64,000 nucleotides of DNA from an uncultured Poribacteria bacterium. GTDB taxonomy: Bacteria; Poribacteria; WGA-4E; WGA-3G. Positions within the stretch are counted from its first letter, which is position 1; each line of letters begins with the position of its first letter. The position numbers were made by a program, and so were the translations under genes. The notes under the pieces are model-generated. The model was not told the origin of the DNA. It saw only the letters and a program-made list of their open reading frames with translations, and made no database searches. Location of the stretch: positions 2,146,217 through 2,210,216 of the forward strand of contig OX639992.1 of assembly GCA_951828515.1 (NCBI GenBank), read 5' to 3'. This document shows positions 9,552 through 59,690 of the stretch, in pieces.

Positions 9552-9650
9552 AAAAACCTCCCATATTAGCCGTCAGTCATCAGCAGTCAGCAAAGAGACC
9601 TCGTGGCAGACATGTCACGCATGCCATATACTGAAAGCCGATTGTCATTA

Positions 9651-11031: not shown

Positions 11032-12309
11032 TTATTCAGTGAGTGCCTGATAGGTTAAAACCTTAAATTGTTGGTGGAAAGGGTAAGGGTTACTGAGAAG
11101 CTGCGTCATGAGCAAGCCGATTAATTTTTCTTCAGGGTCGATCCAGAAGGTGGTAGCGGCGGCACCGCCCCAACTGAAATTCCCTACGGACTCCAGAATG
11201 TTTGGGGGTTCCTTATCCGTAACGACAGCAAAACCGAGTCCAAACCAATCATCATGATGAGGGTAGCGCATCAACTCAACAGTCTTTCTGCCCAATATGC
11301 GGACACCGTCTAACTCACCGCCATTGAGCAACATTTGACAAAATCGCATATAATCTGCAGCGGTTGAAACGAGACCTCCACCGCCTGATGGGAAAAAACT
11401 GACTTCATCGTTCGCGAGAGGTGCATTCTCGACACGTTCCAGTCCATTCTCTTTGTTAGGTCTATAGAGTGCCGCAAATCTGTCGACCTTCTCCGATGGC
11501 ACTGAAAACGCTGTGTCTACCATGCCAAGGGGTCCAAAAAGACGCGTCTGGAGGAATTCTTCAAAAGGCATCCCAGCAACCACTTCCACGAGGTAGCCGA
11601 GTACGTCAACGGAGACACCATAGGTCCACCTTTCACCCGGTTCGTGAACGAGTGGAATGTCGCCGAGTTTTTTCACCATATCCGCCAATGTCGAGCCGGT
11701 TTCAAAGATTTTTAGTTCCTTGTAGCGTTCATCGACGGGTTTATCGCCCCAGCCGTAAGTCAACCCAGCGGTATGCATGAGGAGGTGTTTGATGGTTACC
11801 TCTTTCTCCGCATCCAAGATTTCAGTCTGGTCCTCGTTGTAGACCTTCATATTTTCAAATTCAGGAATAAATTGGGAGACGGGGGTACCGAGTTGAAAAT
11901 GTCCCTCCTCATAAAGCATCATCACTGCAACACTGGTAATCGGTTTCGACATGGAATAGATACGGAATATCGTATTCGGCTCAACGGATTTGTTCTCCTC
12001 AACATCTCGCATACCGATGGTTTCAAAATGAACAATTTTCCCGCGTCTCGCCACGACCGTCAGGAATCCCGGTATACGTCCGTCATCAACATAATTTTGC
12101 ATGACAGGACGGATGCGTTCAAGGCGTTCAGCGGAAACACCAACCTCCTCTGGCACCGTCATTGGTAGTCCTTGTCCGAAAGCAAATGTGGTGGTATAAA
12201 AAAGCAGTAAACACGTGTAGATTAATAATTTCCTCAATCTGTTCTCCTTCTTCTTACCTATAGTAACTCCCAAGAAGTTATAAACATCGCCACGACCGGA
12301 CTTGTACAA
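11032..12309 (-). CDS. Serine hydrolase, beta-lactamase family (paralog 3, divergent, with signal peptide or anchor)
   Basis: YSMSKPITS, YGVSVDVLG, PSGGGG. N-terminal hydrophobic segment. Confidence 0.75.
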   Translation of the reverse strand: MYKSGRGDVYNFLGVTIGKKKENRLRKLLIYTCLLLFYTTTFAFGQGLPMTVPEEVGVSAERLERIRPVMQNYVDDGRIPGFLTVVARRGKIVHFETIGMRDVEENKSVEPNTIFRIYSMSKPITSVAVMMLYEEGHFQLGTPVSQFIPEFENMKVYNEDQTEILDAEKEVTIKHLLMHTAGLTYGWGDKPVDERYKELKIFETGSTLADMVKKLGDIPLVHEPGERWTYGVSVDVLGYLVEVVAGMPFEEFLQTRLFGPLGMVDTAFSVPSEKVDRFAALYRPNKENGLERVENAPLANDEVSFFPSGGGGLVSTAADYMRFCQMLLNGGELDGVRILGRKTVELMRYPHHDDWFGLGFAVVTDKEPPNILESVGNFSWGGAAATTFWIDPEEKLIGLLMTQLLSNPYPFHQQFKVLTYQALTE

Positions 12310-12439: not shown

Positions 12440-13246
12440 TTACGGTACACGCTTAAGGTATCCCCAGCGTGTTGCGAGTTTGCCACCGGGTTCAACACTG
12501 AGAATTGCGGCTAATCCGACATCCATCGCTTCCTGAATTTCCGCTTCGGTTCGTGCGACATTGGAGATGCGTACCTCATCAATGACACCTTTCAATCCAT
12601 TTGCGTTATTGAGGTTCGGCACACCGATTGTAATCGGATCTGCGCTCTGAAACGTGGTGCCATTGGGTGCTTCAATTTCCAATTCACCATCGACATACGC
12701 GCGTCCCATTTTGCCATCATAGGTAAAGGCGAGATGATGCCACTTGTCGTCGGTGATCTTAGTCGTGGCATCTATACTAAATCCACATGCCCCATTTGCT
12801 CCGATTTCTGAATGCAGCACATGTTGATCTACATGAACCCAGATACCGTAGTTTCGGTTGCCGCATCCTGCCTGCTGTTTGCAAACGATGCCCTGCCACT
12901 TACCTGTGCCCTCTTCCACTTTGACCCATGCTTCAATACTGAGTGTCTCCAATTCCAGTTTCTTGGTAGATTCAACAACGACGTAACCACCGTCATTCCC
13001 GGGAAATTCTAATCCGCCCCCGAATTCTGCCTTGACCCATTTAGGTTTCCCCGCGAATTCGCCATCGTGTCCGTTACCAGAAACGTCTTTCACTACATCG
13101 CCGGCACCTTCGTCAAAGAGCCAGACGGCGACGGTATTTTCGTCAACCGCTGCATCTGCGAACAGACCCCCGAACAGTGCCAAAACTACTACTGCGATGA
13201 AAAGAAACTTGATGCTATAGATAGATTTTGTCTCTGTAGCGTGCAT
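12440..13246 (-). CDS. Secreted LamG-like (concanavalin A-like lectin/glucanase) domain protein with conserved C-terminal GKLATRWGYLKR tail
   Basis: Signal peptide. LamG-type N-terminus (VAVWLFDEGAGDVVKDVSGNGHDGEF). Paralog of 54939-55727. Confidence 0.6.
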   Translation of the reverse strand: MHATETKSIYSIKFLFIAVVVLALFGGLFADAAVDENTVAVWLFDEGAGDVVKDVSGNGHDGEFAGKPKWVKAEFGGGLEFPGNDGGYVVVESTKKLELETLSIEAWVKVEEGTGKWQGIVCKQQAGCGNRNYGIWVHVDQHVLHSEIGANGACGFSIDATTKITDDKWHHLAFTYDGKMGRAYVDGELEIEAPNGTTFQSADPITIGVPNLNNANGLKGVIDEVRISNVARTEAEIQEAMDVGLAAILSVEPGGKLATRWGYLKRVP

Positions 13247-18790: not shown

Positions 18791-21010
18791 TTAATCTCGT
18801 GAACGTTTCAATTCACCCCACTGCGTAGTCAGCTTACCTTTAGCGGAAACCAACCCTCTCAGGCGGACTGTCGCTAACGTCTGGCGTTCGCCCCCCAAAG
18901 ATACGTCCTCAATTTGATAGTAGTAGACGACATTCGGCTTCGCCGTGGTGTCTGTCCACGTATAGGTATTCCGTTCAGCGGTCGTGCCTGCTCCAGGAAT
19001 CAACTGGACGTTGATGACCTTGAATTCACCCGTCCTCGTTTGACTTCGCAATATATTGAATCCGGCGTTGTCCACCTCGGACTCGGTCGTCCAATTAATG
19101 GCAACCGTGCCAGTCTCCGTGAGGTCTGGACGGAATTGAGACAGTTGGACGGGAAGTGCCCCGCCTGCCCGGATACTGGGGCTTCCGTGGTCGGTTCTAC
19201 TACCGTACCAAGTTTCAATATTTTTCTGTGATAAGTAGAGGAATGAAGTTTCTGCTGCGCGGACCCACGCATCTCTCAGGGTCCCGTCAAGCGCGATGCC
19301 TTTGTTCGTGTATCTTCGGATCCGTGGGTTATACTCGCGATACTGGCGGATGATCGAGGTTCGGGCTCCATCTTCTGTCCATCCGTTCGGCAATTCCCAT
19401 GTGGGTCGATCGGCAGTCCGGACGCTGCCATCAAGGTTTCCAACTTCATCGACGAGGTTATTTCTCCCATCGACGAGTTTGATGTGGAACCCCTGGGTCG
19501 GATGTAAGAACGCATCTCGCGAGGTGCGCATCCCAAATTCAGCGGCGAGTGCCGGGTAAACCTTGAAGACACGGGTAGCTCCGAAAAGTTGTCCTTTCGC
19601 GTGAGTGGTCCCAGAGTTTCTTCCATCGGCTGAGACGATGAGCACCGACTGCTCTGGAGAGATCGTTTTCACGCGTCCACTATTCTTAAAATTAATTGTT
19701 CCGGACAGGGGTTCGTTGTTTGCGCGCGGATTGTCGTAGTTTTCAATGATTAGTTCCCATCCAGTATCAGCATCTAAGGCGACGGTTTCTGTTTTAGAAG
19801 TATTGGAGAGTTCAATCCACTGGATTTCATTCGCGCCCCCATCCGTAGCGAACATAATTTCGCTAATCGTCACTGTTCCTTGTCTTGGCGTAACGCCTGT
19901 TGGGGTACCGGTTGCAGCGACCCGAAAGGTGTGTGCGGGGGAAGGCGTTGCTGTGTTTTGGACCCCACCTGCGTCTGCGACTGCACCAGTGTTGACCTGC
20001 ACCGTCACAGTCGTAACCCCCGGATTGGGCGTGAGGATTGCGGAGTAGACGTTTGAACCGGGGATCGGGGTTGGTGAAGTGATTGTGCCGCCGGTGACGT
20101 TGATTTCGCTCGCCAGTAGCGTGGTGCCCGCTTGCAGCGGTTCGTTAAAGGCGATCGTCATAGGAAAGGGACCGCCGCCGAGAGAAGGCGCGCCAGCAAT
20201 CGTTGCGACGGGTCCGGTCGTATCTACAGTAAACGTGCCTTTTGGGAAGACATACGCGCCGTTACTTGCCGCTTCCACTGTTATCTCTGCTCTGCCTGGA
20301 AGAGGGACAATTGTTAACGTCCACACTCTTTTGGCAGCGTCAGGGACAATACTATCAAGATATCCGTTGGTGACCTTGAGATCTGCGGACCCCAGTGTAA
20401 TCGATTTTGTTGAGGTTAACGTCACCGTAAAGGGTGTGTCGCCACGAACAAGTTTATCAGGGGTCAACGTGAGCGGGGGTGCCGCACTCCGAATTATTTT
20501 GACTTCTAGTGGAGTAGCCGGAACACTTGGGGTCGCGGCAGTACCGTCTATTACATCCTGTGGGCTAAGAATAGTGTTAGCGGCCGCTGCTGGTATTCGT
20601 ATAATGACCCTATTGACACTACCTCCAGCGGTGATTGTTGTCGTGTACACGCCTGGAACGTCGGAATCAACAGGAGCCACAGCTGCCCCGCGTTGAACAA
20701 ACTGGTCATTTGGATCAAAAGCAAACAACTCAATATCAGTTTCATCAAACCCGGTTACTGGGGTATTCACAGGAGTAGCGGCATTGGGGTCATTTTGAAA
20801 CATGATGGTTAGTTCAAAAGAAACGGATTCAGCTCTGATGCCGTACACTTGGATGCCCAGCGTGTCTGATTCAGTGTCAACATTTGCCACCTCATCTGGG
20901 ACCGATAGGACTGGTGTTACAGCTTCGGTTGCAGGGGTCGCAACGAAAGCCAGTCCAACAACGAGTAGCACCGCAAAAACTAAGATAAATTTCAATTTAT
21001 TAAAGAACAT
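18791..21010 (-). CDS. Large secreted protein of unknown function with C-terminal GKLTTQWGELKR tail
   Basis: Signal peptide. T/V/P-rich beta-strand-like composition. SD GGAGG upstream. Confidence 0.45.
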   Translation of the reverse strand: MFFNKLKFILVFAVLLVVGLAFVATPATEAVTPVLSVPDEVANVDTESDTLGIQVYGIRAESVSFELTIMFQNDPNAATPVNTPVTGFDETDIELFAFDPNDQFVQRGAAVAPVDSDVPGVYTTTITAGGSVNRVIIRIPAAAANTILSPQDVIDGTAATPSVPATPLEVKIIRSAAPPLTLTPDKLVRGDTPFTVTLTSTKSITLGSADLKVTNGYLDSIVPDAAKRVWTLTIVPLPGRAEITVEAASNGAYVFPKGTFTVDTTGPVATIAGAPSLGGGPFPMTIAFNEPLQAGTTLLASEINVTGGTITSPTPIPGSNVYSAILTPNPGVTTVTVQVNTGAVADAGGVQNTATPSPAHTFRVAATGTPTGVTPRQGTVTISEIMFATDGGANEIQWIELSNTSKTETVALDADTGWELIIENYDNPRANNEPLSGTINFKNSGRVKTISPEQSVLIVSADGRNSGTTHAKGQLFGATRVFKVYPALAAEFGMRTSRDAFLHPTQGFHIKLVDGRNNLVDEVGNLDGSVRTADRPTWELPNGWTEDGARTSIIRQYREYNPRIRRYTNKGIALDGTLRDAWVRAAETSFLYLSQKNIETWYGSRTDHGSPSIRAGGALPVQLSQFRPDLTETGTVAINWTTESEVDNAGFNILRSQTRTGEFKVINVQLIPGAGTTAERNTYTWTDTTAKPNVVYYYQIEDVSLGGERQTLATVRLRGLVSAKGKLTTQWGELKRSRD

Positions 21011-45171: not shown

Positions 45172-47067
45172 TTAGTCATCACCCTCAACAGTAGCCGCTG
45201 CTTCGGCGGTAGTTGTTGCTTCTTGCTTCTTCTTTTCGCCCCACAAACCGAGCCAGAAAATAAACCCAACGAGTGCGAAGAAGATCACCATGATAATTGC
45301 TACCATGTTCACTGCCTCGCTGAGAAGCGGTGTAAAGGCATCAGCAGATGTATCCTGCATGACTCCGAAGATATGCCACGCCTCTCGAAGCCCTGAGCGT
45401 GCGTATCCCATCAGTCCCATTAGGGACGTAAACGTAATCGCCACGAGAATTAACACATACTGTGAGCGATCCGTCATTTCGCCCCATTTAATGGTGCCAG
45501 ACGTTGTCGCCTTGCGGTACATGAAAATATCAACGATTGTTACGACTGCCATCACCGCGAGTGCAATCAGGACCTGATAAGGCGTAAGGATATTGACACG
45601 TAAATCTGTCGGGACAGTAAATCCGACGATACCGATAACGACAATCGAGACCGTGGCAAGGAAGAAGGCTGCAGAAATGCCAATGTTGCCAATCTTTTTC
45701 CAATTCGCCGTAGGCACTTTACCCGAACGCCGATAAAATAGGAAACTCAAGAAGGTCGTGAGAATAATGATATTAACAGCCGTATTTTTGGCAGTCATCA
45801 AGCCGAACAAACCGAGGTGTGGGTGGTTTGCGCCGCCCATCGCGCTCAGTTCGCTGGCACTCGAAATCTTAGAGAGCGTCCGCGGGGTCATCCAGATTGC
45901 AACACAGATGATAATAACTGTAATCATATATGGACGGTAGCGCGCATAAATCTCCGCACCTTCAATCCGTCCCATGCCTGACCAGAGGTAGTAGTTTGCC
46001 CCAATAAAGAGCACACCAATCATCACTGCCTGAATGATAAATAGCCAAGAGAACAGGCTCCCCATCATGTTAATGCCCATCGTGTTATTGAACATGTAGA
46101 TTTCTCTACCGAGCCAATAGCCGAGGAAAGGCAGGGGTATCAATCCGCAGAGAGCGATGAAGTTGCCGGTATAGCCCATCCAATCGTAGTGCGCTTTGTC
46201 CTCTTTCGTCTTCGCGACGAGGAATCGGAACGCCGCATAAGCAGCTACAATGGAACCACCAAAGGCAATATTACCGACGAGTCGATGGATATTGACAGGC
46301 ATCCAAGTAAAGTTGTTGACGGCATCCCAAACGGTTCCCATGAACTCGCCTGTTGTCTCGTTGTGGAGCGGCACCGTCGTATGGCTTGTGACACCCTCCA
46401 TAGCGGTTTCAGGTGTAAGTGCTGGATCTGCAGCCAATTTCTCCTCTATCCAAGACTTACGTCTTCCCTCAGAGAGTACGCCGTATTGGGTTGCGGGACT
46501 GGTTTGGTAACTCAACCACGCGTTAGAAACGAACATAATCGCAGTGCCGAACACATTCAGAAGCACGCCGAGGAAGAGATGCCATCCTTTATGGCGTCCC
46601 TGCATCTTGTCCCATCCGTAGGAGTAAAGGTAAAGCGTAAAGGTCTCACCGAAGAATAGGATGACGTAAAAAATCATCGTCGGTCCAAATATCCCGCTGA
46701 GCTTTGTCATAACTTTGGGATAGCACCAGATGAGGACGAAGACGAGAACACCACCGAGTAAGGCTGTCGTCGAAAACGCGCCCATACAGAGTTTAATGAA
46801 CTCTTGCGCCATCCGATCGTATCGCATGTCCTTCGTTTTCCAGCCGATAAATTCGATGATAACAGCGAACATCGGGACACCGAGAATAAAAGATCCGAAC
46901 AACAGGTGGAGTTGGGCAGCGATCCACGCTGCATTTCGACTGCCGATCTTCGGGAAAGCGCGATATTCTGCCTCGGTCACGTCCTGTGCAAACACCGGTG
47001 CAACAGCTAATACCACATAAGCGAAGAGTACACAACCAAGTATAAGATAGAGTCTCTTTTTCGACAT
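45172..47067 (-). CDS. Large polytopic membrane protein of the respiratory cluster, at least 14 TM. The N-terminus resembles the heme b558 region of cytochrome bd subunit I.
   Basis: AAQLHLLFGSFILGVPMFAVIIEF resembles CydA helix 1. There is a long hydrophilic loop after TM5. No heme-copper His pattern. Confidence 0.35.
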   Translation of the reverse strand: MSKKRLYLILGCVLFAYVVLAVAPVFAQDVTEAEYRAFPKIGSRNAAWIAAQLHLLFGSFILGVPMFAVIIEFIGWKTKDMRYDRMAQEFIKLCMGAFSTTALLGGVLVFVLIWCYPKVMTKLSGIFGPTMIFYVILFFGETFTLYLYSYGWDKMQGRHKGWHLFLGVLLNVFGTAIMFVSNAWLSYQTSPATQYGVLSEGRRKSWIEEKLAADPALTPETAMEGVTSHTTVPLHNETTGEFMGTVWDAVNNFTWMPVNIHRLVGNIAFGGSIVAAYAAFRFLVAKTKEDKAHYDWMGYTGNFIALCGLIPLPFLGYWLGREIYMFNNTMGINMMGSLFSWLFIIQAVMIGVLFIGANYYLWSGMGRIEGAEIYARYRPYMITVIIICVAIWMTPRTLSKISSASELSAMGGANHPHLGLFGLMTAKNTAVNIIILTTFLSFLFYRRSGKVPTANWKKIGNIGISAAFFLATVSIVVIGIVGFTVPTDLRVNILTPYQVLIALAVMAVVTIVDIFMYRKATTSGTIKWGEMTDRSQYVLILVAITFTSLMGLMGYARSGLREAWHIFGVMQDTSADAFTPLLSEAVNMVAIIMVIFFALVGFIFWLGLWGEKKKQEATTTAEAAATVEGDD

Positions 47068-47088
47068 TTTTTATGGCTTTCGCGTTAT

Positions 47089-47838
47089 TTATTTTGTGCG
47101 TTTCTTGAAGTCAGCACTTGTGAAGTTTACGGCGATATCGCCACTCGCTGTCACTTCAACGGTTTTGTTTGCTGAACCGAGTTCTTCATGCCATGCGACG
47201 ACACGGACTTTACCGGCTGGCACATCAGCGATCGAATAAGCACCGGCATCAGCGGATTTCTCATAGTCATCCGAACTGATCCATGCACCATCAGCATTTT
47301 TGTAACCCGTAACCGTGAAAAAGTTGTTAGGAACAGCGACAATGTAACCGGTCATCCATGCGTGGATATCGCATGTGAACTTAATTTCCTCAGCTTTGGC
47401 AATTTTGTGCGGGATGATTTTGCCAGGCTGTGGAATCTGATAGTTTATCGCGTCGTTCTTTTTCGCGTGAGAGTGGACGTTGTGTGCGACTGGATCACTG
47501 GAGGTAATATCAATAGTAGAGCCAGCAACAACTGCGAGAACGTGCGGGTAGTAAGCGCATGCCTTCTGGTCCATCACTGGGTTCTTATCCGGAACGACAG
47601 GTTTTGCGCCACGGACGCGAGCGTAAACAACGACGTTTTTAATACCCTTGCCCTTTGAGACAACAAGCGCATCGGACTTTGTGCCTGCTACAGCGTCAAC
47701 GCAATGTTGATCTTTAGTAGCCGTTAAGGCAGGGCGCGCGGGGGCATCGCCTTCATACATTACGGTGCCGGTGATGGTCCCTGCGAACGCAGCACTTGCA
47801 AGCATCGTGCCAACAAGCAGGGAGACGAAAATTTTCAT
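47089..47838 (-). CDS. Blue copper (cupredoxin) protein, paralog of 39380-40162
   Basis: Signal peptide. HNVH upstream His. CDIHAWM copper site. Confidence 0.5.
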   Translation of the reverse strand: MKIFVSLLVGTMLASAAFAGTITGTVMYEGDAPARPALTATKDQHCVDAVAGTKSDALVVSKGKGIKNVVVYARVRGAKPVVPDKNPVMDQKACAYYPHVLAVVAGSTIDITSSDPVAHNVHSHAKKNDAINYQIPQPGKIIPHKIAKAEEIKFTCDIHAWMTGYIVAVPNNFFTVTGYKNADGAWISSDDYEKSADAGAYSIADVPAGKVRVVAWHEELGSANKTVEVTASGDIAVNFTSADFKKRTK

Positions 47839-47937
47839 AATTTGGTTTCTCCTTATCTGTTTTAAATTTACCTACAATATATTAACACCCCAAAGTTTTA
47901 GGATGCAAATAAATAGACCTAAAAATTCACTTTCAAA

Positions 47938-48294
47938 TTACGGACGAAACATCTCCTTAATATAGGCGAGTATCTCCCGTTGTTCCTCATCACTGAGGTA
48001 ATAGTAGAACGCCGGCATATCGTCCTTTCCAGCATTGATGCTATCCAGCAATTGTTCATCACTGTGCATATCCCAGAGACCGCTGTCTGTCAGGTCTGCG
48101 GGATCCAACCTTTTGAAACGTCCGATGCGTCCGTTGCCCTCTCCGTTGTTGCCATGGCATCCAGCGCAATACCGAGCGTACTTGTATTCAACCTCCGACT
48201 GATACTTCGTACTCGGGTCAACCTGCTTAGCCAACCAGATTAAGCCGTTGAGCCATACCATAATCATGACGATAATGACCACAAGGTGTCTCAT
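47938..48294 (-). CDS. Small mono-heme cytochrome c (c6/c553-like), membrane-anchored
   Basis: N-terminal TM helix. CAGCHG. Met-rich distal region. Confidence 0.7.
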   Translation of the reverse strand: MRHLVVIIVMIMVWLNGLIWLAKQVDPSTKYQSEVEYKYARYCAGCHGNNGEGNGRIGRFKRLDPADLTDSGLWDMHSDEQLLDSINAGKDDMPAFYYYLSDEEQREILAYIKEMFRP

Positions 48295-48470
48295 TTTTTA
48301 ATTATTCCTTGCGGAGTAATAAAGGGCGTTTGAAGTGTCGGATGCGTTCCATCTATCTGAAGAAAGGGAAACGCCCTATCAAAAACCCCAAGCAAAAACA
48401 CGCAGGCGGATATGAGAAATACACGCAAAAATCTTAACACACGCAATTTCTCCGCAAGGTAAAATTAAAA
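48295..48470. mobile_element. MITE-like unit with a ~20-bp terminal inverted repeat (TTAATTATTCCTTGCGGAG ... CTCCGCAAGGTAAAATTAA) derived from the leader repeat family
   Basis: Direct reading. Lies between the start of gene 47938-48294 and the stop of gene 48471-51581. Confidence 0.55.
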
Positions 48471-51400
48471 TTAGCGTCCCAAGGAGATGAGGTAATCTCG
48501 GACGAGTCGAATCTGTTTTTCAGCATCATTGTCAACATAACCATCGAGTGGCATGTGTTGTCCACCAACGAGGGGCCATGCTTGCGGCATCGCTGTTCCG
48601 GGTTGGAACGACTGCGGATCTTTCATCCAATCAATGAGCCAATCCGCCTTGAGTCGCTCTTTCGCCAACGCAAGATCGGGGCGTCCTGCCTTGTCACTTC
48701 CTTCAGGAATAGTCTCACCTTTTGCGGGATGGCAGGAAATACACTGAAGTACGTCAAAAATCTGCTTCCCGACTCGTAACTCAGCACTCGTCGGTGTTGG
48801 CGTTTCAAGCGTTTCATAAGGGAATGGTTCATTATCAAGCGCGGAGAAGTATTTAACCAGCGTTGTCGCCTCGTCATCAGATAATCCGAATGTCGGCATC
48901 CGTACTTTGAGTCCGTATCGGATGTCTGAGGGTTCTTTGAGGAATGTAAATAACCAATCTGGATACACTCTTGCGCCTTCCGCTTTCAAGGGTGGCGGTG
49001 CCACTTGCTTGGCAACCATCTCGCTCAACCCTTCATGTGCGATGATAACATCCTGATAATCACCGCCCGCGCCTTCAATCTCGTGGCATCCGGTGCAGTT
49101 ATATTTCTTGACCAATCGCCTACCCGCATCAATGTCGTTCAATTTCTCGGATCGGTTATGGATATAACTCAGCGGATACTGCTCCGGTTGAAAACTCTTC
49201 AAAAGCACGGCGATCGCTCTCGCGTCTTCATCGCTAATCTGGAAGACTGGCATCCGAGAAACAATCCGGCGGGTTTGATAACGTCGTGGATTGGTAACTT
49301 TACCGAGCGTCCACCCCGTCCAACTGTGTTCAATGCCCACCGTGTCGCCGAAGTCAAGTTCATCAGCGAATTTCGCGCCGAATTCGCCGAGATCCGCACC
49401 GACTTTTGACTCATTCTCAAAACCGGGAATCGTGTGACAACCGAAACATCCATAAGTCCTGACGAGTGCTTCACCTTCCGCTACATCTACTTCGCCGATG
49501 GATTCGGTAACTGCGTTGGTCGTTGCTTGCTGTAAACTCATCAGATAGGCGACGACGTTGTCAAGTTCGCCGGCACTTAACCGCAAACTCGGCATACTCG
49601 TATCCGGGTCATACGCTTTTGGATCGCTAATCCACTGGTGGAGGTAACTCGCCGTAACCTTTGTGCCAACACTGTCAAGTGCCGGGGCAAAATCACTCCC
49701 TAACCCATCGACGGCATGACATGTGAGGCAACCAACAGTTTTGACGGTTTCCTCGCCTGCTTTAATAGCACTTTCGGATGTGGAATACTTGGAATTGGAT
49801 GCATCCAATTCCGCATCATTCATCGCAGCAAGGTAAGCCGAGATAGATTTCACCTCATCAACAATGCGGAGGACATAGCTATCAGGGTAAGGATACTCTG
49901 TGCCATCGTCTGTTTTAATGACAATACCATTGGCTGTTTTGGTAACAACCCCGGTGCGCATCCCACCGTTTTTAAGGTAGACGATCTGCGTCATACCGTC
50001 GGCTGGGAAGAAATTCGGCATTTTCGCATTTGATAGATAAGCTTCAGGGTTCTTAATCCAACTTTCAAGCCATGCTGTATCTTTCACCTTACTGCCGACT
50101 TTTGCCAAGGATGGACCAACTTTGGCGATGTTATCGAGGGCACTATACCCTTCAACAGCGTGACATCCGTGGCATCCAAGGTCTTCAAAGAGTGCCAATC
50201 CCTTCGTCAAATTCGGTGCATAGTCTTGTGGTTCATCCGTTTCAGGATTCACACCGTAATCTAACATCATCACGCCATCGTGACAGCGGCGGCAGTTAGA
50301 CTCCATATACCCTTCTGTTTCTTCAGATGTTCTGCCGGTATGTTCATCTAATCCGAGGACAGGGGTGAGCCAGTATTCAGCGTGCGTCAAGGCGTGGGCG
50401 GATTTCGCTGTGAGTGCTTGACCTTGCCCACCATGGCACGGGGTACACCCGAACCTATCAACCGGATGCTTGTCGAGAAGCACATCGCGGTGGGGATGCG
50501 TCTGAAGGACAGGACGATAGCCGGTCTCATAAGAGATTTCAATTTCACCGAAGACATCCACGTCACTGAAGGTAAGCGTGCCATTTTCCTCTAATGTATA
50601 TTCATCCGCTTCTGCGTCAAATCCATCTATTATAACACTCTCACTACCGACCTTAACGCTTGCGTGCTTGAGACGATGTATAACAGGATTTTCGCCATCA
50701 CCTTCCACCTCAAACATCTCTTGTCCGGACTGTTCGTAACCCTCTTTATCAGCGGAGAAGTGACAGGTAGCACACCGATCTGCGGTATGATTAAAGTCTT
50801 CAAGATAGTATTGAACGATGGTTCGTGTTTCACGGAAAGGATTTTCTAACAGACTCCCCAAGAAGGTTCGCTTAATACCGCCGACCGAATGCAGTTTTTC
50901 TTCAAGGCGCGTAACTTCTTCGTGTTGTGCTTTGTCGGCTTGCAATGATTGAAAGGATGCTTGTGCGGCGGCGATACCCGCAGTAATTTCCGTATCCGTA
51001 GGATTATATTTCTGGGCGATGAGATAGGTGCTGAGGGCACTCTGTGCGTCCCCATTGGTTTGATAAAATTGCGCCAAAGCCTTGTTCGCATTTGCAAAGG
51101 TTGCTTCTGCGTTCAAAACGGCTTCGGTGAGTTCGCCTTCAATTTGGGACTCATAATCCGCTAATTTTTCCTGCCATCTATCAACGGTAGCATTGTGTTT
51201 ACCCTTCGCTTCATGGAGACTATGCTGATATTTATAGTTAATGGCATCGGATTCGCTCTGTCGGAATTTGCGTTCTTGCAGTGCTTCTTCTACGGCGACC
51301 TGAGCGTCCCTGACTTCCTTCGTTAACCGACCAAGTTCCTTTGCGTCAGGTTCTTGAGGTGTGGGGAGTTCAGGCAAAGCCAATTGTGCATTCTCTAATT

Positions 51401-51581
51401 CCGCGCTTGTTTTCTCATACTCATATTGATAAAATTGCTGCTGGACCTGCTTCCACGGACGACGAGTAATCATCTCATCCCAGAATCCCCATATCGTCAC
51501 CAGTCCTAACAATCCGGACAAAATAAAGAACAAAGCAGAATACGACTTACTCTCAGCAGGAATTTCCTTTTTGCTCCTCAC
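48471..51581 (-). CDS. Octaheme c-type cytochrome with N-terminal TM helix and a ~250-aa coiled-coil region
   Basis: Eight CxxCH sites (CATCH, CTPCH, CRRCH, CHGCH, CLTCH, CFGCH, CTGCH, CISCH). Heptad-like E/K/Q-rich N-terminal segment. Confidence 0.7.
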   Translation of the reverse strand: MRSKKEIPAESKSYSALFFILSGLLGLVTIWGFWDEMITRRPWKQVQQQFYQYEYEKTSAELENAQLALPELPTPQEPDAKELGRLTKEVRDAQVAVEEALQERKFRQSESDAINYKYQHSLHEAKGKHNATVDRWQEKLADYESQIEGELTEAVLNAEATFANANKALAQFYQTNGDAQSALSTYLIAQKYNPTDTEITAGIAAAQASFQSLQADKAQHEEVTRLEEKLHSVGGIKRTFLGSLLENPFRETRTIVQYYLEDFNHTADRCATCHFSADKEGYEQSGQEMFEVEGDGENPVIHRLKHASVKVGSESVIIDGFDAEADEYTLEENGTLTFSDVDVFGEIEISYETGYRPVLQTHPHRDVLLDKHPVDRFGCTPCHGGQGQALTAKSAHALTHAEYWLTPVLGLDEHTGRTSEETEGYMESNCRRCHDGVMMLDYGVNPETDEPQDYAPNLTKGLALFEDLGCHGCHAVEGYSALDNIAKVGPSLAKVGSKVKDTAWLESWIKNPEAYLSNAKMPNFFPADGMTQIVYLKNGGMRTGVVTKTANGIVIKTDDGTEYPYPDSYVLRIVDEVKSISAYLAAMNDAELDASNSKYSTSESAIKAGEETVKTVGCLTCHAVDGLGSDFAPALDSVGTKVTASYLHQWISDPKAYDPDTSMPSLRLSAGELDNVVAYLMSLQQATTNAVTESIGEVDVAEGEALVRTYGCFGCHTIPGFENESKVGADLGEFGAKFADELDFGDTVGIEHSWTGWTLGKVTNPRRYQTRRIVSRMPVFQISDEDARAIAVLLKSFQPEQYPLSYIHNRSEKLNDIDAGRRLVKKYNCTGCHEIEGAGGDYQDVIIAHEGLSEMVAKQVAPPPLKAEGARVYPDWLFTFLKEPSDIRYGLKVRMPTFGLSDDEATTLVKYFSALDNEPFPYETLETPTPTSAELRVGKQIFDVLQCISCHPAKGETIPEGSDKAGRPDLALAKERLKADWLIDWMKDPQSFQPGTAMPQAWPLVGGQHMPLDGYVDNDAEKQIRLVRDYLISLGR

Positions 51582-51609
51582 GAAATTTTCTCCCTTTTTC
51601 TAATTTCCC

Positions 51610-52476
51610 TTAAACATTGAACCACGGGGATACCCAGATGTATTTTACATTCAAAACCACACGCAGAATCATTTTTATCGGCAGCGCGAGCATGGTTAAG
51701 AACAGAAATGAAACGACGATATATCGGACAAGACCCAGTTCCTGTAAGAACTGGCTACTTTTAGACTTCCATAAGTAGAAAAGGGGACCGATTGCAAAAT
51801 AGCCTGCAACCATCACGAACCCGAAAAAGTTCGCGGTATCCGCATCACGGATGCCGAAAAGATACGACAAATTCACATTTGTCAACGGGACAACGAGATG
51901 TGGATCCCACGCTTCCCATGGCGCAAAGAAGTTCCATCCGGGACCTCTCAGGAATGTCCCAACGACCATCAGAACGATCCATAAAATGATAAATCCGAAA
52001 CAGAATACTCCAAGCGCGAAGGGACGCTCTTTTATTGTGTAATATCCCTTGCCCTTCGGATTGATGTCAATGTACGGAATAGCAACCAGGCCTGCGATGA
52101 TCAGTCCAGGGAGCACCACTCCAGCAATCCACGGATCGAAATAAACGAGCATTTCCTGAAGTGCCAGGAAATACCACGGTGCTTTAGAAGGGTTCGGTGT
52201 CTTCGTCGGATCACTGGGTTCCTCAAGCGGTGCATCAATCATAATCGACCACACACCGAGCACGAGCATCACGATAATAGCGCAGATAAACTCATTCCGG
52301 CACAGATAGGGCCACACGTAAACCTTATCGTTAAGAGCGGCATCCGAGGGGACACCTGTTTTGTCCGTCTGGCGTGCCTGCCGGTATGAAAGCCAGATGA
52401 AATAAGGTATCAAAAAGAGAATAGCAACAATGGGGACATTATCCGGCTTTGTCACCAATGCTATAAGATGCTCCAT
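51610..52476 (-). CDS. Cytochrome b C-terminal domain protein (b6f subunit IV / PetD-like)
   Basis: PEWY-type motif (APWYFLALQEML). Three to four TM helices. Confidence 0.7.
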   Translation of the reverse strand: MEHLIALVTKPDNVPIVAILFLIPYFIWLSYRQARQTDKTGVPSDAALNDKVYVWPYLCRNEFICAIIVMLVLGVWSIMIDAPLEEPSDPTKTPNPSKAPWYFLALQEMLVYFDPWIAGVVLPGLIIAGLVAIPYIDINPKGKGYYTIKERPFALGVFCFGFIILWIVLMVVGTFLRGPGWNFFAPWEAWDPHLVVPLTNVNLSYLFGIRDADTANFFGFVMVAGYFAIGPLFYLWKSKSSQFLQELGLVRYIVVSFLFLTMLALPIKMILRVVLNVKYIWVSPWFNV

Positions 52477-52524
52477 ATTCGTCTGCTCCTTTTCATAGCC
52501 ATCAGTATGGATTTTTTCAAAAAT

Positions 52525-52665
52525 CCTTTCAGTTATCAGCCGTCAGTCTCAAGAGATGCGGATGCATCATAACTCTCTTAACTCAGATTCTCCCACGCTC
52601 TTCAAAAGCTTTGTATCAGTAGGCGTGGGTGAGTCTGGGCTGACTACTGACGGCTGATAGCTATT
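52525..52665. mobile_element. MITE-like element with a perfect 13-bp TIR (ATCAGCCGTCAGT / ACTGACGGCTGAT) between the two cytochrome b genes
   Basis: Direct reading. Confidence 0.6.
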
Positions 52666-53436
52666 TTATAGAGGTCCAGAGATACCACCGTCTTTACGGA
52701 CTCGCCAGAAATGTAAAGCCATTAGGACGCTTGCCAACAGAGGCACCGCAACGCAGTGTAAAATATAGAACCTCAATAACGTTGAGGGTCCTACGATCGT
52801 ACCCGCCAGCAGCGCGAATCGAACATCGTTGGATTGTGTGATGTCCTGTGGGGCGAATGGACCTTCATGCCCCAAAACCGGTGTCGCACGTGCCATGTTC
52901 GTGCCGACAGTCACAGCCCAAAATGCCAGTTGATCCCACGGTAACAGATAGCCCGTGAAACTCAGGAAAAATGTCACAAGCAACAAAATAACCCCGACTG
53001 CCCAGTTGAATTCTCGAGGCTTCTTATAGGAACCGGTCAAGAAAACCCGGAACATGTGCAGCATCACCGAGATAACCATTCCGTGTGCCGCCCAGCGGTG
53101 CATGTTCCGCAGGAGCATGCCAAACGGAATGTCAAATTCGAGGTACTGGACATCGTGGAAGGCGTATTCAGCTGTTGGTCGATAATAGAACATCAGAAGT
53201 ACGCCAGTGACGGCTGTCACGAGGAACATGAGGAAAGTGATACCGCCCATGCACCATGTAAATCGGAAGTTCAACGCGTGGCGAGAAATCCGGGGAGGAT
53301 GGAGATGTAACCAGACGTTTTGGAGGACCTGTAAGGTATAACGGCGCCCAGTGTCTTCATATCCGTGGCGGAACATAGAGCGCCAAATGTCGGAATTCGT
53401 AATCTTTTCTTTGAGCCCTTTACGTTCTTCGTTCAT
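52666..53436 (-). CDS. Cytochrome b N-terminal domain protein (b6-like, split cytochrome b)
   Basis: Heme-ligand His pairs in helices B and D (RNMHRWAAHGMV...HMFRV ; GYLLPWDQLAFWA). Confidence 0.8.
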   Translation of the reverse strand: MNEERKGLKEKITNSDIWRSMFRHGYEDTGRRYTLQVLQNVWLHLHPPRISRHALNFRFTWCMGGITFLMFLVTAVTGVLLMFYYRPTAEYAFHDVQYLEFDIPFGMLLRNMHRWAAHGMVISVMLHMFRVFLTGSYKKPREFNWAVGVILLLVTFFLSFTGYLLPWDQLAFWAVTVGTNMARATPVLGHEGPFAPQDITQSNDVRFALLAGTIVGPSTLLRFYILHCVAVPLLASVLMALHFWRVRKDGGISGPL

Positions 53437-54938: not shown

Positions 54939-55727
54939 ATGATTCGTTTTACAATCAGTTTAATAATGGTAGGTTTCATGTGTGCGCAAGTCAGCAACGC
55001 TGAAATCGACCCGAACACTATCGTCGGCGCGTGGTTATTCGATGAAACAGGTGGAAAAGTCGCCAAAGATTCATCCGACAATGGCAACGACGGCGACCTC
55101 GTCGGTGGTGCGAAATGGGCAAAGGGTAAATTTGGTAACGCCATTGAACTCAACGGTAAGGACGCTTGGGTCACTGTGCCAGAGATTGAACCGCTTGAGG
55201 ACTTTACGCTCATGAAATGGTTCAATTCGACAGGTAGGGTTGGATTGTGGAGATGCTTCTTCAATCGTGACGGTTGGGCTGCCGGATACGTCCATTATCA
55301 ATTCCGTCCGGACAACAAGATGGAAATGGCTATTCACTCTAATGCCCCAGTCCGACATCCGGGGTGGCCTGATTCGGATTTCACGGCGGACAAAGACATC
55401 TTGGATGAATGGTTTCATCTCGCAGTTGCCTACAGCAGCAACGATGAAGAGGTTCGCGTCTACTTCGATGGCGAACTTGACGCAGAGGGTAAATGGGGAC
55501 CTTTGCCAGGAGAATTTGGACCCGGACGGATCGGCTCCTGGGATGGTGGCGGCAGAGAATGGGAGGGTCTGTTCGACGAAATGCTACTCTTCGATGTCGC
55601 ACTGGAGGCAGACGACATTCAGATGCTCATGGATAACGGGTTAGAAGCCACGCTTGCTGTCGAACCGGCGGGTAAACTTACCACAAGTTGGGGGGAACTT
55701 AAGTTAGGACGGACACACAGTAGGTAG
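54939..55727 (+). CDS. Secreted LamG-like domain protein with C-terminal GKLTTSWGELK tail
   Basis: Signal peptide. LamG N-terminus (IVGAWLFDETGGKVAKDSSDNGNDGDL). SD AAAGGAGAA. Confidence 0.65.
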   Translation: MIRFTISLIMVGFMCAQVSNAEIDPNTIVGAWLFDETGGKVAKDSSDNGNDGDLVGGAKWAKGKFGNAIELNGKDAWVTVPEIEPLEDFTLMKWFNSTGRVGLWRCFFNRDGWAAGYVHYQFRPDNKMEMAIHSNAPVRHPGWPDSDFTADKDILDEWFHLAVAYSSNDEEVRVYFDGELDAEGKWGPLPGEFGPGRIGSWDGGGREWEGLFDEMLLFDVALEADDIQMLMDNGLEATLAVEPAGKLTTSWGELKLGRTHSR

Positions 55728-55826
55728 GCAGGAACGCAGCACAGACAATCTCCGATAGGCGCGCTTCCACGCGCGCCCGGAGATTCTGCTCCGCTGCTTG
55801 ACTGTCATTTGCGTGTCCATAGTTCG

Positions 55827-56882
55827 TTAGTTATCTACCTGCTTTGAGTCGGTCTTCTTTAGTTCAGCCCAGATGACGATTGTCTTTACTTTGAGATTAG
55901 ACGGGGCAGCTGGTGCGTCATTAAGGTTAATCGTGAGCTCATTGAAAAACTGATTACCTTCAACGTCCATCGTATGCAACTGAACCTTATCAGATTTCAG
56001 GAACATTTTTCGGTGAACATTGAATTCAATAGTGAATGTTCCAGCGGACAATGTTCCCCAGCCTACAGCTTCGTTCCTGCTGACACATTTAAGAAAAGAC
56101 TGATGTATCCTATTTTTATTTTTAACATCAAAAACGATGCGGATATAACCAGTCCTCAACTCAAATTTTTCAGCTTTCGTGACGATAGGAAAGGCTTTGA
56201 TGTGCCTTCTGTTATTGAAATATCGGTTCTTATCAAGCCATCTCACTTCTTCTGGAGAAAGAAACGTGATGTCGAGATCGTAACTGGGGTTATCGTCCAC
56301 CGACGCGACCATTACAAAATCCTTTCCGTCTTGGTTGTGTTCCAACCCAAAAGCATGTCCCATTTCGTGCGCAGTCAAAAACGATGATAATGTATTTCGG
56401 TTTGCAGGAATTATAGGATAGTTTGCACAGAATTCGTCTACGACATTATTAGCGTTGTCCCGCCAAGTCTTACACCAGTTTGCATTGAATGCCCCTCCAG
56501 CAATCTTTTCTGCACCGGCGACATATACAACTCGTAGCCCGTTCTCATCGTTAAATCCCTCACCGAGCGCGTTATTGACTTCATCAACGATAAGATTAAT
56601 ATCGCCATACTGCCTTAAGGTTTTCTTACCCTTGATATTGTGACAGATCACCTTGCCATCGCCGTCGGTTTCAAGGTTGAATGTCTTGTATCCGTAACCG
56701 TGTCGATTCATCTCTTTGGCGTAGAACCGCTGAGTGTTCAGCAGGATATTTGCTTTCGCTTTCATTTCTGCCTCTAAAGGCACCCCCATATCAGACGGTG
56801 TTAGGTAAATAGCACGAACCAGAGGTTGATTTGCGTAGACATAGGTAGTAGACAACAGTATTACTATCAGGGTAAAACGCTT
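55827..56882 (-). CDS. Secreted zinc metalloprotease (metzincin, HExxHxxGxxH)
   Basis: HEMGHAFGLEH. GTG start with SD AAGGGAA and signal peptide MKRFTLIVILLSTTYVYA. Confidence 0.6.
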   Translation of the reverse strand, partial: KRFTLIVILLSTTYVYANQPLVRAIYLTPSDMGVPLEAEMKAKANILLNTQRFYAKEMNRHGYGYKTFNLETDGDGKVICHNIKGKKTLRQYGDINLIVDEVNNALGEGFNDENGLRVVYVAGAEKIAGGAFNANWCKTWRDNANNVVDEFCANYPIIPANRNTLSSFLTAHEMGHAFGLEHNQDGKDFVMVASVDDNPSYDLDITFLSPEEVRWLDKNRYFNNRRHIKAFPIVTKAEKFELRTGYIRIVFDVKNKNRIHQSFLKCVSRNEAVGWGTLSAGTFTIEFNVHRKMFLKSDKVQLHTMDVEGNQFFNELTINLNDAPAAPSNLKVKTIVIWAELKKTDSKQVDN

Positions 56883-57051
56883 CACTTCGGATTCCCTTTT
56901 CGGATTGCTCGAAATTAGAATTTTGAGGATTTTGATTAGATAATGATGTGAAAAAGTCGCGAATGCCTCTGTATGGTGCTTATCACTTTTCAACCGTCGT
57001 AATGGTAGCAACCTTGACAAAAGCAAACTGAATGCCTTGATGTGCCTTATA

Positions 57052-58140
57052 CTACTGCTTAACAACGAATATTATATCTGCATCGGTTGAGTAAGGTTCA
57101 CCCTCCCAGTAGAAATTCAGTTCAAAGCCAGGACCTTGATTGACCCCAGTCAGATAATTGTTCACGTTTTCTGAAATTAAATGCCTAGCCCTTTTCAACT
57201 TCCATGAACTGAAAAAATCGCTTTTATCTACCAGCACTAAAAACAAACGATTTGAAGCATCAAAACGCCGTGTACCTTGGTTTTCATATAGCCATCGAAC
57301 AAGTGGTTCTGGATTCACGATACAATCATCTAACAACGCCTCTCGATATTCTTGCAGCTCGCTTATTAGTTCTTGGGCACTATGCTGTGGATTGTCGTCA
57401 AGCTTACGCCATAAATCTGGAATCAATATTGAATCTGGTACTGACGTGTCAAAACCAACATCGAGTGCCCGAGCTAAGCCTTTCATCAAGGTTAATTCCG
57501 GACGAAGATCACGAGACCTGCGGTGATCTTTAATATACCCCTCAGGCAAATAGGTAACCTTCAAGTCAAAAGGTTTGTTGTTAACGAAAAAGTCGATTTT
57601 CTTTATTTGTCCGATTGCTGGAATTACACTAACATGTTCTTTAAAAATGTCTTCAATGATGATAGAACTCCAATGGTTGTACCACGAAGCTACTACATAA
57701 GCCCGCAAACTGTTATGAAGATTGCCTTCTATCTCGTTTTGCAAGGATTCGTAAGAGGTAATCTGTTTCACATATCTGTTAACAATTGTTGTCTCTAAAC
57801 TATTCTGATGTAAACCACCCCAATCAAAAGACTCGATTTTATACAACTCGTTGATTAACTGTTGTTCGTTATCACGTCGGATTTTCCGCTCTTTTTCAAA
57901 CAATTCTTGTATGACATCGTCTATATCTTCTAATCGGATAGCCGATTCATAAATATACTGCAGTTTCTCTACTACCTTAAGCCTTCCTACTTTTAGTTCA
58001 AATTTGTGGATTAGGTAATCAAGGTATTCCTTCCGCGAGAGCGAACATAGTTTCAAAAACCGCATTCCATCATCTGTCTTCGCTAGTTCGCGAATTTTAT
58101 CATTTTTGTAGAGATTCATTGTCCCGTTAAAGTTTAACAT
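57052..58140 (-). CDS. Hypothetical protein. Candidate type II restriction endonuclease partner of the adjacent methyltransferase.
   Basis: Start lies ~2 nt after the MTase stop codon, suggesting an operon. AT-rich. Possible PD-(D/E)xK signature (KIDFFVNNKPFDLKV). No similarity search was possible. Confidence 0.3.
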   Translation of the reverse strand: MLNFNGTMNLYKNDKIRELAKTDDGMRFLKLCSLSRKEYLDYLIHKFELKVGRLKVVEKLQYIYESAIRLEDIDDVIQELFEKERKIRRDNEQQLINELYKIESFDWGGLHQNSLETTIVNRYVKQITSYESLQNEIEGNLHNSLRAYVVASWYNHWSSIIIEDIFKEHVSVIPAIGQIKKIDFFVNNKPFDLKVTYLPEGYIKDHRRSRDLRPELTLMKGLARALDVGFDTSVPDSILIPDLWRKLDDNPQHSAQELISELQEYREALLDDCIVNPEPLVRWLYENQGTRRFDASNRLFLVLVDKSDFFSSWKLKRARHLISENVNNYLTGVNQGPGFELNFYWEGEPYSTDADIIFVVKQ

Positions 58141-58142
58141 CT

Positions 58143-59690
58143 TCAACAAATCCCCTTTGGGTGTCGGGTTGTCCATCCATTTGTAAATTTAAAAGTATCT
58201 ATAATACGGACTTGATCTTCTTTTTTCATGGATTTGCCATATAGCAACACGAAATCTGTTTTTAATCCTCCTTTTCTGTTGTCTTGAAGAATTGATCCAG
58301 CAGAATATACTACAGGATAACATCCAAGGTAGACCAGATCTGAAGTCGCTTCCAATTCTCGCAGGCTATCCCAATAATGTGTTGAACGTGTATTAAACAT
58401 GAATGCTAAAACTCCATTTTTCTCCAGGACCCGAGAGCACTCATGAAAAATTGATGCTAACTTTTTCTTATAGGCAAGTATGTCTTTACCGCGCTCTTTC
58501 GCGTTTGAAACAACGAGCTCATCTTCATAGTTTGATTCAAGACCGATTATACCATTCCACATTTCGCTGAGCTCTAAATAAGGAATCCTGTCTCCGTGAG
58601 GAGGATCTGTTAAAACAACTTTGATTGTGCCTGTTGGGATATTCTTCAGAAGGACTTCGGAGTCGCCCTGCTGGATACAAGCTGATTGATTTCCATTTAT
58701 GAAGGAACTTAGAGAGGACGACATTACAACAGGGTTTGTTACGCCTGCTTCTCCAACAGCCTTTAATAATTTCTGAGCTTTGGTCGCGTAACAATTCCAT
58801 GCGTTTATTTCAAAATGTCGCGCTGGCTGCCAATATCCAACAGCCCAACTTCCTACCTCAATAGATCCCTTATCACGCAGAGAATCAACCTGCTTATCAA
58901 TTTTTGCTTTCACATTCTTGGTTTTATTTCTCTTTGAAATGGCGAAAACCATCTTGGACATTTGACCTGCTGATGCTGAAAGTATCAGGTGGAGAGCTCT
59001 CTTTAAATCACCAGAATACTGTTCTATTTCAGCCTTAATTAAGTCAATTGCTCGTAACGCACGAGGGGTGAAAATTTCTATAAAGCCACGGGTTTTCTGT
59101 GAGTTAATTCGCGAATTGTCAAACAAGCAGAGCTCCCTTAGCAGTCGTGGTTCGTACATTTCCACGTTTTGGAGCCTCTCTATTTCGTCTCTAGTTAGGT
59201 TAAGCTCAATGCGTTTTCGACCTTGTTTCGTCCATACTCGCGTTATTCGATCATTCTCCCATAGAATATGCGTAGCGTGATTTCCATCCGATAAGAGGTA
59301 CATAGAATTAATGAGTGCCTTAAGGCGATTTTCAACGCCATAAATAGCATTTCTTAAATCCATATAGTCCGGTGCTTGTAGATAAAGTTTTGTCAATTCA
59401 ATACTGATCGGATTAACATCAAAACCAATAAATCGACGATTTCGAGTGATGCACTCTTTCGCTATAAGCCCAGAACCGAGAAACGGGTCTAACACAATAC
59501 TATTGGGGGCTGTTAACTTTTCTATCAGAAATTGCCATGCCTCAATAGGCTTTTTCCCCCAATATTTGTGGAAACCAGCAAATCCTTTGTATCCCGCCGG
59601 TAGATGCGTATCACAAGTATGAATAGAGGATAACCGGTCACCGACTGTCCTATTTCCGTCAAAGTCAATAGTGGTTTGCAAATCACTCAA
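58143..59690 (-). CDS. DNA methyltransferase (alpha-class N6-adenine/N4-cytosine type)
   Basis: AdoMet motif I LDPFLGSGL near the N-terminus. Catalytic motif IV VLTDPPHG in the C-terminal third. AT-rich gene. Confidence 0.7.
   Translation of the reverse strand: MSDLQTTIDFDGNRTVGDRLSSIHTCDTHLPAGYKGFAGFHKYWGKKPIEAWQFLIEKLTAPNSIVLDPFLGSGLIAKECITRNRRFIGFDVNPISIELTKLYLQAPDYMDLRNAIYGVENRLKALINSMYLLSDGNHATHILWENDRITRVWTKQGRKRIELNLTRDEIERLQNVEMYEPRLLRELCLFDNSRINSQKTRGFIEIFTPRALRAIDLIKAEIEQYSGDLKRALHLILSASAGQMSKMVFAISKRNKTKNVKAKIDKQVDSLRDKGSIEVGSWAVGYWQPARHFEINAWNCYATKAQKLLKAVGEAGVTNPVVMSSSLSSFINGNQSACIQQGDSEVLLKNIPTGTIKVVLTDPPHGDRIPYLELSEMWNGIIGLESNYEDELVVSNAKERGKDILAYKKKLASIFHECSRVLEKNGVLAFMFNTRSTHYWDSLRELEATSDLVYLGCYPVVYSAGSILQDNRKGGLKTDFVLLYGKSMKKEDQVRIIDTFKFTNGWTTRHPKGIC

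Follow-up and report, generated by a model that had tools for sequence, protein, structure and literature searches.

Four genes scattered over the window (the whole 64-kb stretch of DNA that was analysed), at about 12.4, 18.8, 54.9 and 55.8 kb and amid ordinary genes, encode proteins that end in a shared C-terminal sequence, referred to here as the tag. The ORF at 54939..55727 on the forward strand encodes a 262-aa LamG-domain protein with an SPase-I-type signal peptide (predicted cleavage after MIRFTISLIMVGFMCAQVSNA, before E), a Pfam Laminin_G_3 domain at residues 72-228 and the C-terminal end ...AVEPAGKLTTSWGELKLGRTHSR. The tag core of this protein, AVEPAGKLTTSWGELK, is encoded at 55656..55703 and is kept in homologues; it is followed by a variable basic end, LGRTHSR (55704-55724), and the stop codon (55725-55727). 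One database protein is 100% identical to the LamG protein, and all homologues with a source name come from Candidatus Poribacteria, to which the window itself belongs. Encoded on the reverse strand at 12440..13246 is the second LamG-domain protein, which has 268 aa, a signal peptide and a Pfam LamG domain at residues 86-238. It ends in ...SVEPGGKLATRWGYLKRVP, its tag core, SVEPGGKLATRWGYLK (12452-12499, reverse strand), being followed by RVP; an orthologue in L097 has an identical tail. Both LamG proteins gave weak matches (22 and 37 bits, against a cut-off of 410) to the C-terminal half of NCBIfam NF052521, the TafC fimbrial protein model, which probably reflect merely a shared LamG-like fold.

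The third ORF, at 18791..21010 on the reverse strand, encodes an exported protein of 739 aa that combines Ig-like (Big_12) and lamin-tail (LTD) domains and ends in ...LVSAKGKLTTQWGELKRSRD, with the tag core LVSAKGKLTTQWGELK at 18806-18853 (reverse strand) followed by RSRD. Canonical tails were also found on members of this protein family in L010, L027, L060, L087, L096, L105 and L117. The penultimate domain of the 739-aa protein (...NWTTESEVDNAGFNILRS...YYYQIEDVS...; about 100 residues; 18794-19150, reverse strand) has no Pfam match, and was seen in the same seven loci, where it recurs immediately ahead of the tag in large LTD/Ig proteins that other Poribacteria encode. The fourth gene, at 55827..56885 on the reverse strand, encodes a metzincin-like peptidase with Pfam metzincin signatures (352 aa from a GTG start, predicted cleavage after MKRFTLIVILLSTTYVYA, before NQP; 100% identical to the 352-aa database protein P0302). 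It ends in ...KVKTIVIWAELKKTDSKQVDN, in which a divergent tag, PSNLKVKTIVIWAELK (55857-55904, reverse strand), is followed by KTDSKQVDN. The forward-strand LamG gene and the metzincin gene are convergent, with stop codons 100 nt apart (55727-55827).

The first three ORFs and their C-terminal sequences were exactly as given in the preliminary description of this DNA. That description had placed the shared motif at 55683-55727, which covers GKL to the stop codon of the first LamG gene, but the conserved tag starts nine codons earlier, at 55656. It had also called its three carriers unrelated; this holds for the 739-aa protein relative to the LamG proteins, but the LamG pair are paralogues with 33% identity. 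The count of three carriers fell short, missing the fourth, divergent tail on the adjacent metzincin, which like the 739-aa Big_12/LTD protein is unrelated to the LamG pair.

The position of these tails is far from random. A six-frame scan of the 64-kb window for W[GA]x[LIVM]K found five occurrences, and four of them are followed, 3-9 residues on, by the stop codon of a long ORF. When each of the 46 window ORFs of at least 180 aa was shuffled, 0.018 ORFs with a near-terminal motif were expected by chance, against the four observed, and the maximum reached in 5000 shuffles was one. The amino acids that the four tails have in common are encoded with differing third codon positions, so that the tails do not stem from a recent duplication of the DNA.

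From 129 distinct tails the tag was defined as [AP]-V-[EDS]-[PA]-x-[GDN]-K-L-[AT]-T-T-W-G-x-[LI]-K, about 16 residues long (short form AVEPxGKLATTWGxLK; as one peptide, AVEPAGKLATTWGKLKSAR). The core is followed by 1-12 mostly basic or polar residues, this end being rich in R, Q, S and K (28% R/K versus 7% D/E among post-motif residues). Valine at position -5 is present in 126 of the 129 tails, and A/P at -6, E/D/S at -4, P/A at -3 and T at +4 are also conserved; since these positions were absent from the search pattern, they confirm the motif independently. The fixed residues use all synonymous codons available to them (six for Leu, four for Thr, four for Gly and both for Lys), and selection, which is strong, therefore acts on the peptide rather than on DNA or RNA. 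The tag contains neither a membrane-spanning hydrophobic stretch nor a cysteine. Every full-length homologue of the 54939-55727 LamG protein, down to 30% identity, carries V-[ED]-P-x-G-K-L-x-T-x-W-G-x-[IL]-K followed by 1-12 residues, so that the tail is better conserved than the domain preceding it. A profile of the tail alone scored 26-55 bits on true tails, an information content that we infer to fit recognition by a protein better than generic lipid binding.

The distribution of the tag was examined by scanning one genome per species (185,579 species) with the back-translated pattern K-L-[AT]-T-x-W-G-x-[ILVM]-K, which gave at least 138 motif matches at at least 119 loci. In 133 of the 138 matches listed, the motif lay 1-12 residues (mode 3) before a stop codon. 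Sequences titled Poribacteria accounted for 107 of the 119 loci listed, and these included metagenome-assembled genomes (MAGs) from sponges, MAGs of deep-sea and other free-living origin, and the single-cell genome WGA-3G. Six further loci belong to three MAGs titled 'uncultured bacterium', with several tails in each; in one of these, L024, a neighbouring gene is 87% identical to a gene in L088, and judged from that gene L024 is poribacterial. One locus, L054 (JAPPIL010000222.1), is sponge-derived and titled Pseudomonadota bacterium RHO2_bin_21, and encodes two proteins with perfect tags, which represent either a mis-binned poribacterial contig or horizontal transfer. The remaining five loci (Prevotella, Synechococcus, Hyphomicrobiales, Elusimicrobia and Acidoferrum) were rejected, their matches being internal, non-C-terminal and of a chance type. 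Among the matches listed, the tag is thus restricted almost exclusively to the phylum Poribacteria. Tagged genes are often tandem paralogues, and 27 additional tails matching a relaxed motif were present in the fetched loci.

The preliminary description had proposed that a profile of the tail be searched against other genomes. A tail-only profile built from the ends of unrelated cargo was run exhaustively against 1.84 billion cluster representatives and retrieved 2,062 of them at E ≤ 1e-3. The tail stood at the C-terminus in 132 of the 142 new proteins listed from this search; in four others (P0224, P0228, P0247 and P0256) it was followed by 15-59 residues, an apparent read-through. Six giant LamG-repeat proteins (P0160, P0161, P0163, P0176, P0178 and P0291) were set aside, as they lack the tail and match only the LamG-end columns of the profile. 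In ten sampled clusters the named members were again Poribacteria. A word-indexed search of 5.8 billion proteins with 45-aa cargo ends returned only proteins of 35-82 aa, apparently through length matching; it supplied diverse tails but is not a census.

The tag is carried by proteins of widely differing fold. After removal of the last 30 residues, 99 complete tagged proteins fell into 23 clusters without detectable similarity to one another (blastp, E ≤ 1e-5). Cluster representatives matched Pfam families for LamG, CBM9_1, F5/8-type-C (discoidin), 3-keto-disaccharide hydrolase/DUF1080, Kelch propeller, ankyrin and LTD domains, as well as DUF3508-like fold families, listed in Pfam as DUF3108_like; about nine representatives had no Pfam match, and the window adds the metzincin. 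These folds include beta-sandwich lectins, a beta-propeller, an alpha-solenoid and a metalloprotease, the largest cluster being LamG (52 of the 99 proteins). Within the metzincin family, close orthologues end in ...PKVKTVIIWAELK and more distant homologues in ...KAKVVTTWSELKTN and ...TVVGTWGAIKANR, while the most distant have NPCBM-type C-terminal domains and no tail. Since these distant homologues end in other domains without the tail, the tag is an add-on, and judged from this series of sequences the window metzincin tail is a divergent but true member of the tag family.

Tagged proteins are also closely tied to export. When non-overlapping ORFs were taken from the window and the fetched loci, a signal-like N-terminus was found in 131 of 133 tagged ORFs versus 213 of 583 untagged ones (37%; Fisher p = 8e-46). 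The scoring was a crude heuristic for runs of hydrophobic residues, to which membrane proteins also respond. The lone exception in the window was the metzincin, for which an over-extended TTG start had been used; the database gene call starts at its signal peptide (MKRFTLIVILLSTTYVYA, then NQP). The window tagged proteins have clear AxA-type cleavage sites. A lipobox-like string was present in only nine of the 99 tagged proteins, indicating that most are SPase-I substrates and not lipoproteins.

An AlphaFold2 model of the forward-strand LamG protein, made with a 60-sequence alignment, has a sandwich with pLDDT above 90 and a last helix at residues 224-240. Its tail (residues 241-262) has pLDDT 47-54 and forms a weak helix that is not packed on the domain, residues 245-260 being drawn as helical at low confidence. 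The metzincin model, from a shallower alignment (mean pLDDT 66), comprises a catalytic domain and a beta-sandwich (residues 234-320), both with pLDDT 70-90, and a tail (residues 330-352) modelled as coil with pLDDT 30-34. The low-confidence, unpacked tails place the tag outside either fold, and in these models it resembles a peptide that would take up an ordered form only once bound to something. No Pfam or NCBIfam model covers the tails in the window. The sole match in a PDB-wide profile search with the tail, to yeast Ku70 (E = 1.4), was internal and is ascribed to chance.

The tag is apparently undescribed: no paper or curated model describing it was found in a literature search conducted mostly outside subscription journals, or in Pfam and NCBIfam. 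In form it is close to the signals of PEP-CTERM/exosortase, LPXTG/sortase, GlyGly-CTERM/rhombosortase and PGF-CTERM/archaeosortase systems, which likewise place a short C-terminal motif, followed by basic residues, on varied proteins with signal peptides, and its V-E-P faintly recalls the P-E-P of PEP-CTERM. In these four systems a hydrophobic TM helix lies between the motif and the basic cluster, and in LPXTG, PEP-CTERM and GlyGly-CTERM proteins this helix holds the substrate at the enzyme. K-L-A-T-T-W-G-x-L-K is only 10 residues long, with a lysine at either end, and cannot span a membrane. When tagged proteins were compared with PEP-CTERM, V-[EDS]-[PA] was followed by x-G-K-L-A-T-T-W-G-x-L-K with no hydrophobic run, and neither TIGR02595 nor any other NCBIfam model matched. 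The corresponding comparison with LPXTG found no LPXTG, no TM segment and no NCBIfam match, and that with GlyGly-CTERM and PGF-CTERM found no TM segment and no model match.

The T9SS C-terminal domain (CTD) shares with the tag its place at the extreme C-terminus, its occurrence on many unrelated Sec-exported folds and its restriction to one lineage (Bacteroidota/FCB group), and it marks surface or secreted cargo. According to PMC4804311, the T9SS signal is itself a folded domain, a beta-sandwich of about 70-100 residues that a large machine recognises. The tag, in contrast, consists of about 16 unstructured residues (tail pLDDT 47-54 and 30-34), and the LamG proteins extend only about 22 residues beyond the final domain helix. 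Kamke et al. (2014) reported weak TIGR04183-like matches in Poribacteria, found T9SS genes to be absent from poribacterial single-cell genomes, and left open the export route of poribacterial surface proteins (PMC3909097). In the present analysis, TIGR04183 and TIGR04131 matched none of the four window tagged proteins at E ≤ 1 and none of ten canonical-tail proteins at E ≤ 10, and no T9SS machinery (SprA/Sov, PorK/L/M/N or PorU/V) was found within the window or 114 related loci.

Two further systems attach unrelated cargo to a common partner through a C-terminal element. Dockerins are small C-terminal modules on many unrelated proteins, read non-covalently by a common receptor (cohesin), but they are Ca-binding domains of about 70 residues, against about 16 for the tag. 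The cargo-loading peptides of encapsulins are a formal analogue of the tag but occur on cytoplasmic cargo without signal peptides; as tested for encapsulin and microcompartment targeting, tagged proteins did not behave as cytoplasmic cargo, 131 of the 133 ORFs having a signal-like N-terminus. Lys-Trp crosslinking by a radical-SAM enzyme (streptide-like) and Lpp-like attachment to peptidoglycan through the invariant Lys were also considered but dropped as unsupported, and the substrates here are large folded proteins.

These results bear on the central proposal of the preliminary description, that the motif marks cargo for a dedicated sorting or attachment pathway. As had been stated there, the tag has no TM segment, and no curated PEP-CTERM, LPXTG, GlyGly-CTERM, PGF-CTERM or T9SS CTD model was matched. 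The suggested enrichment for signal peptides was borne out, within the terms of the hydrophobic-run heuristic given above. Of the possibilities raised against the proposal, that the motif is confined to three proteins paralogous over their last domain is contradicted by the at least 23 unrelated cargo clusters and the reach of the tail-only profile, and that it is part of a known globular domain by its position outside all Pfam domains and outside the AlphaFold fold in two different cargos. With at least 23 clusters, the tie to signal peptides, a tail outside the domains and no match to a sorting model, the proposal is partly supported: its predictions held wherever they could be checked, and the existence of a dedicated pathway is what we infer from them. 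The tag itself is real, phylum-wide and strongly non-random.

The genes around the tagged ones were searched for a candidate partner. Neighbours in the window include three serine hydrolases, Gfo/Idh/MocA and SDR oxidoreductases, an Ig-repeat protein, a ParA-like ATPase, cytochromes b and c, a DNA methylase, a UDG and a melibiase-like protein. No sortase-, exosortase-, rhombosortase- or T9SS-like gene, or other plausible processing gene, lay beside the tagged genes in the window or the 114 related loci, and no peptidase, transpeptidase, exosortase-like membrane protein or outer-membrane translocon was consistently adjacent across those loci. Several families did recur as neighbours (Gfo/Idh/MocA, PhyH, ECF sigma/zf-HC2 anti-sigma, DUF3500, TPR, CRTAC1-like FG-GAP/ASPIC and PQQ propellers) and were rejected as machinery, being merely abundant in Poribacteria; several of the recurrences probably reflect orthologous synteny rather than independent events. 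One arrangement, of CBM9-like+tag, DUF3500, ECF sigma and zf-HC2 anti-sigma genes, was observed in L056, L099 and L111, and another, of a TPR protein, a CRTAC1-like FG-GAP+ASPIC protein and LamG+tag, in L063, L089 and L103; both may be regulatory or functional modules, or orthologous synteny only.

Other gene groups of the window were observed alongside, all on the reverse strand. A tandem run of three genes for serine hydrolases of the beta-lactamase family (394, 393 and 425 aa; 8367-12309) lies just upstream, in window coordinates, of the second LamG+tag gene. A respiratory cluster at 45172-53436 encodes a 1036-aa multihaem cytochrome c, a split cytochrome b (288 + 256 aa), a CarboxypepD_reg-like protein and a cytochrome-bd-subunit-I-like protein. 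At 57052-59690, directly upstream of the metzincin, a DNA methylase gene (N6_N4_Mtase, 515 aa) overlaps a 374-aa ORF without Pfam match, and the two may form a restriction-modification pair.

The reading that we favour, though with confidence no better than evenly balanced, is that the tag acts after Sec as a localisation signal, which a dedicated protein would recognise for passage through the outer membrane or attachment at the surface. It is based on the formal identity of the tag with cargo-tag systems, on its high information content with non-hydrophobic invariant positions, and on the nature of the cargo. Tagged proteins would cross the inner membrane by Sec and then fold in the periplasm, with the V-E-P linker holding the flexible tail off the last domain. 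A dedicated poribacterial protein would bind the tail in a sequence-specific manner, and would either pass the cargo across the outer membrane or fix it, covalently or not, at the surface. Surface display is the most probable outcome for the cargo, which consists mostly of small glycan- or ligand-binding, 'eukaryote-like' modules (LamG, CBM9, discoidin, DUF1080, Kelch, ankyrin and Ig/LTD); such binding modules would otherwise diffuse away as free soluble proteins. Counting against this reading, no candidate receptor, peptidase or translocon turned up beside tagged genes in the window or the 114 loci, and the tag lacks the TM helix on which known covalent sorting tags (LPXTG, PEP-CTERM and GlyGly-CTERM) depend.

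As the main alternative, the tail could anchor its cargo to membrane or LPS directly and without a partner, as a short cationic amphipathic helix on an anionic membrane, in the manner of E. coli PBP5 and PBP6; this is considered unlikely, though it deserves some weight. PBP5/6 too are exported, carry a cleavable signal peptide and end in a short amphipathic segment that lacks a TM helix. In such a helix, L, W and L/I of the tag would fall on one face with a spacing of 4 and then 3 (an i, i+4, i+7 hydrophobic pattern), alongside an invariant Trp and two invariant Lys. The low-confidence LamG helix (residues 245-260), the excess of R/K over D/E after the motif (28% versus 7%) and the lack of a partner gene beside tagged genes in the window and 114 loci are all consistent with such an anchor. 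However, the hydrophobic face is small, three side chains in about 10 residues being weak for membrane binding, and positions that are not hydrophobic (T at +3, the G that follows W, and V-E-P upstream) are nearly invariant, which is unexpected if anchoring were purely physico-chemical. The LamG helix has a pLDDT of only about 50 and the metzincin tail is predicted as coil. PBP5/6 anchors are, moreover, longer, poorly conserved and confined to one enzyme family, whereas the tag is nearly invariant across at least 23 families.

A role in periplasmic proteolysis or quality control, whether as degron or as the site at which a Prc/Tsp- or DegP-type protease matures its substrate, would suit a short, exposed, unstructured C-terminal sequence on exported proteins, and tail-specific proteases (Prc/Tsp) do read such tails. 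These proteases and PDZ domains recognise the last few residues. In the tag, however, the last 1-12 residues vary in length and sequence while the conserved block is internal, and a permanent degron on hundreds of stable structural or binding proteins throughout a phylum would be hard to rationalise; we regard this explanation as improbable. Still poorer is the prospect that the tail has no function of its own and is the inherited end of an ancestral domain, or a strand or helix of the last globular domain. The LamG cluster does make up about half of the tagged proteins and tandem paralogues are common, but the 23 clusters are dissimilar once the last 30 residues are removed and have different folds, and the tail lies outside Pfam envelopes and predicted folds and is kept at 30% overall identity. 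A nucleic-acid element, such as a repeat, a terminator or a regulatory RNA over gene 3' ends, whose translation would by coincidence be the same peptide each time, would account for the constant position at gene 3' ends but can practically be dismissed, as the fixed residues use all their synonymous codons, the window copies diverge at third positions, and no terminator-like hairpin was found at 55500-56000, including between the convergent LamG and metzincin genes.

If the tag is indeed a localisation signal, it may represent a new class of bacterial sorting signal that is linear and short, with neither TM helix nor globular domain. Poribacteria are uncultivated and among the most abundant and widespread sponge symbionts. 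A more tentative proposal, to which we give appreciably less credence than to localisation as such, is that the tag is the address label of an unrecognised, Poribacteria-specific system for outer-membrane translocation or surface attachment, by which the symbiont would present its eukaryote-like proteins for adhesion and glycan binding to the sponge host. Such a system would rely on a linear signal pared down to about 16 residues, with no TM helix, unlike the tripartite signals of sortases and exosortases and the folded T9SS CTD. The tag offers a concrete handle for finding this machinery, and its motif provides a one-line listing of the presumed surface and secreted proteome of any poribacterial genome or metagenome.

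In practical terms the motif also marks contigs taxonomically as poribacterial, helps to reveal mis-binned ones, could serve to detect contamination, and flags many fragmentary gene calls. Fragmentation or decay of tagged genes, or artefacts of assembly and gene calling, seem to be frequent. Many database entries of 35-82 aa (P0094-P0159) consist of just a cargo end and the tag, and in L068 a 25-aa mini-ORF encoding only the tail (3554-3583) lies 88 nt downstream of a tagged gene.
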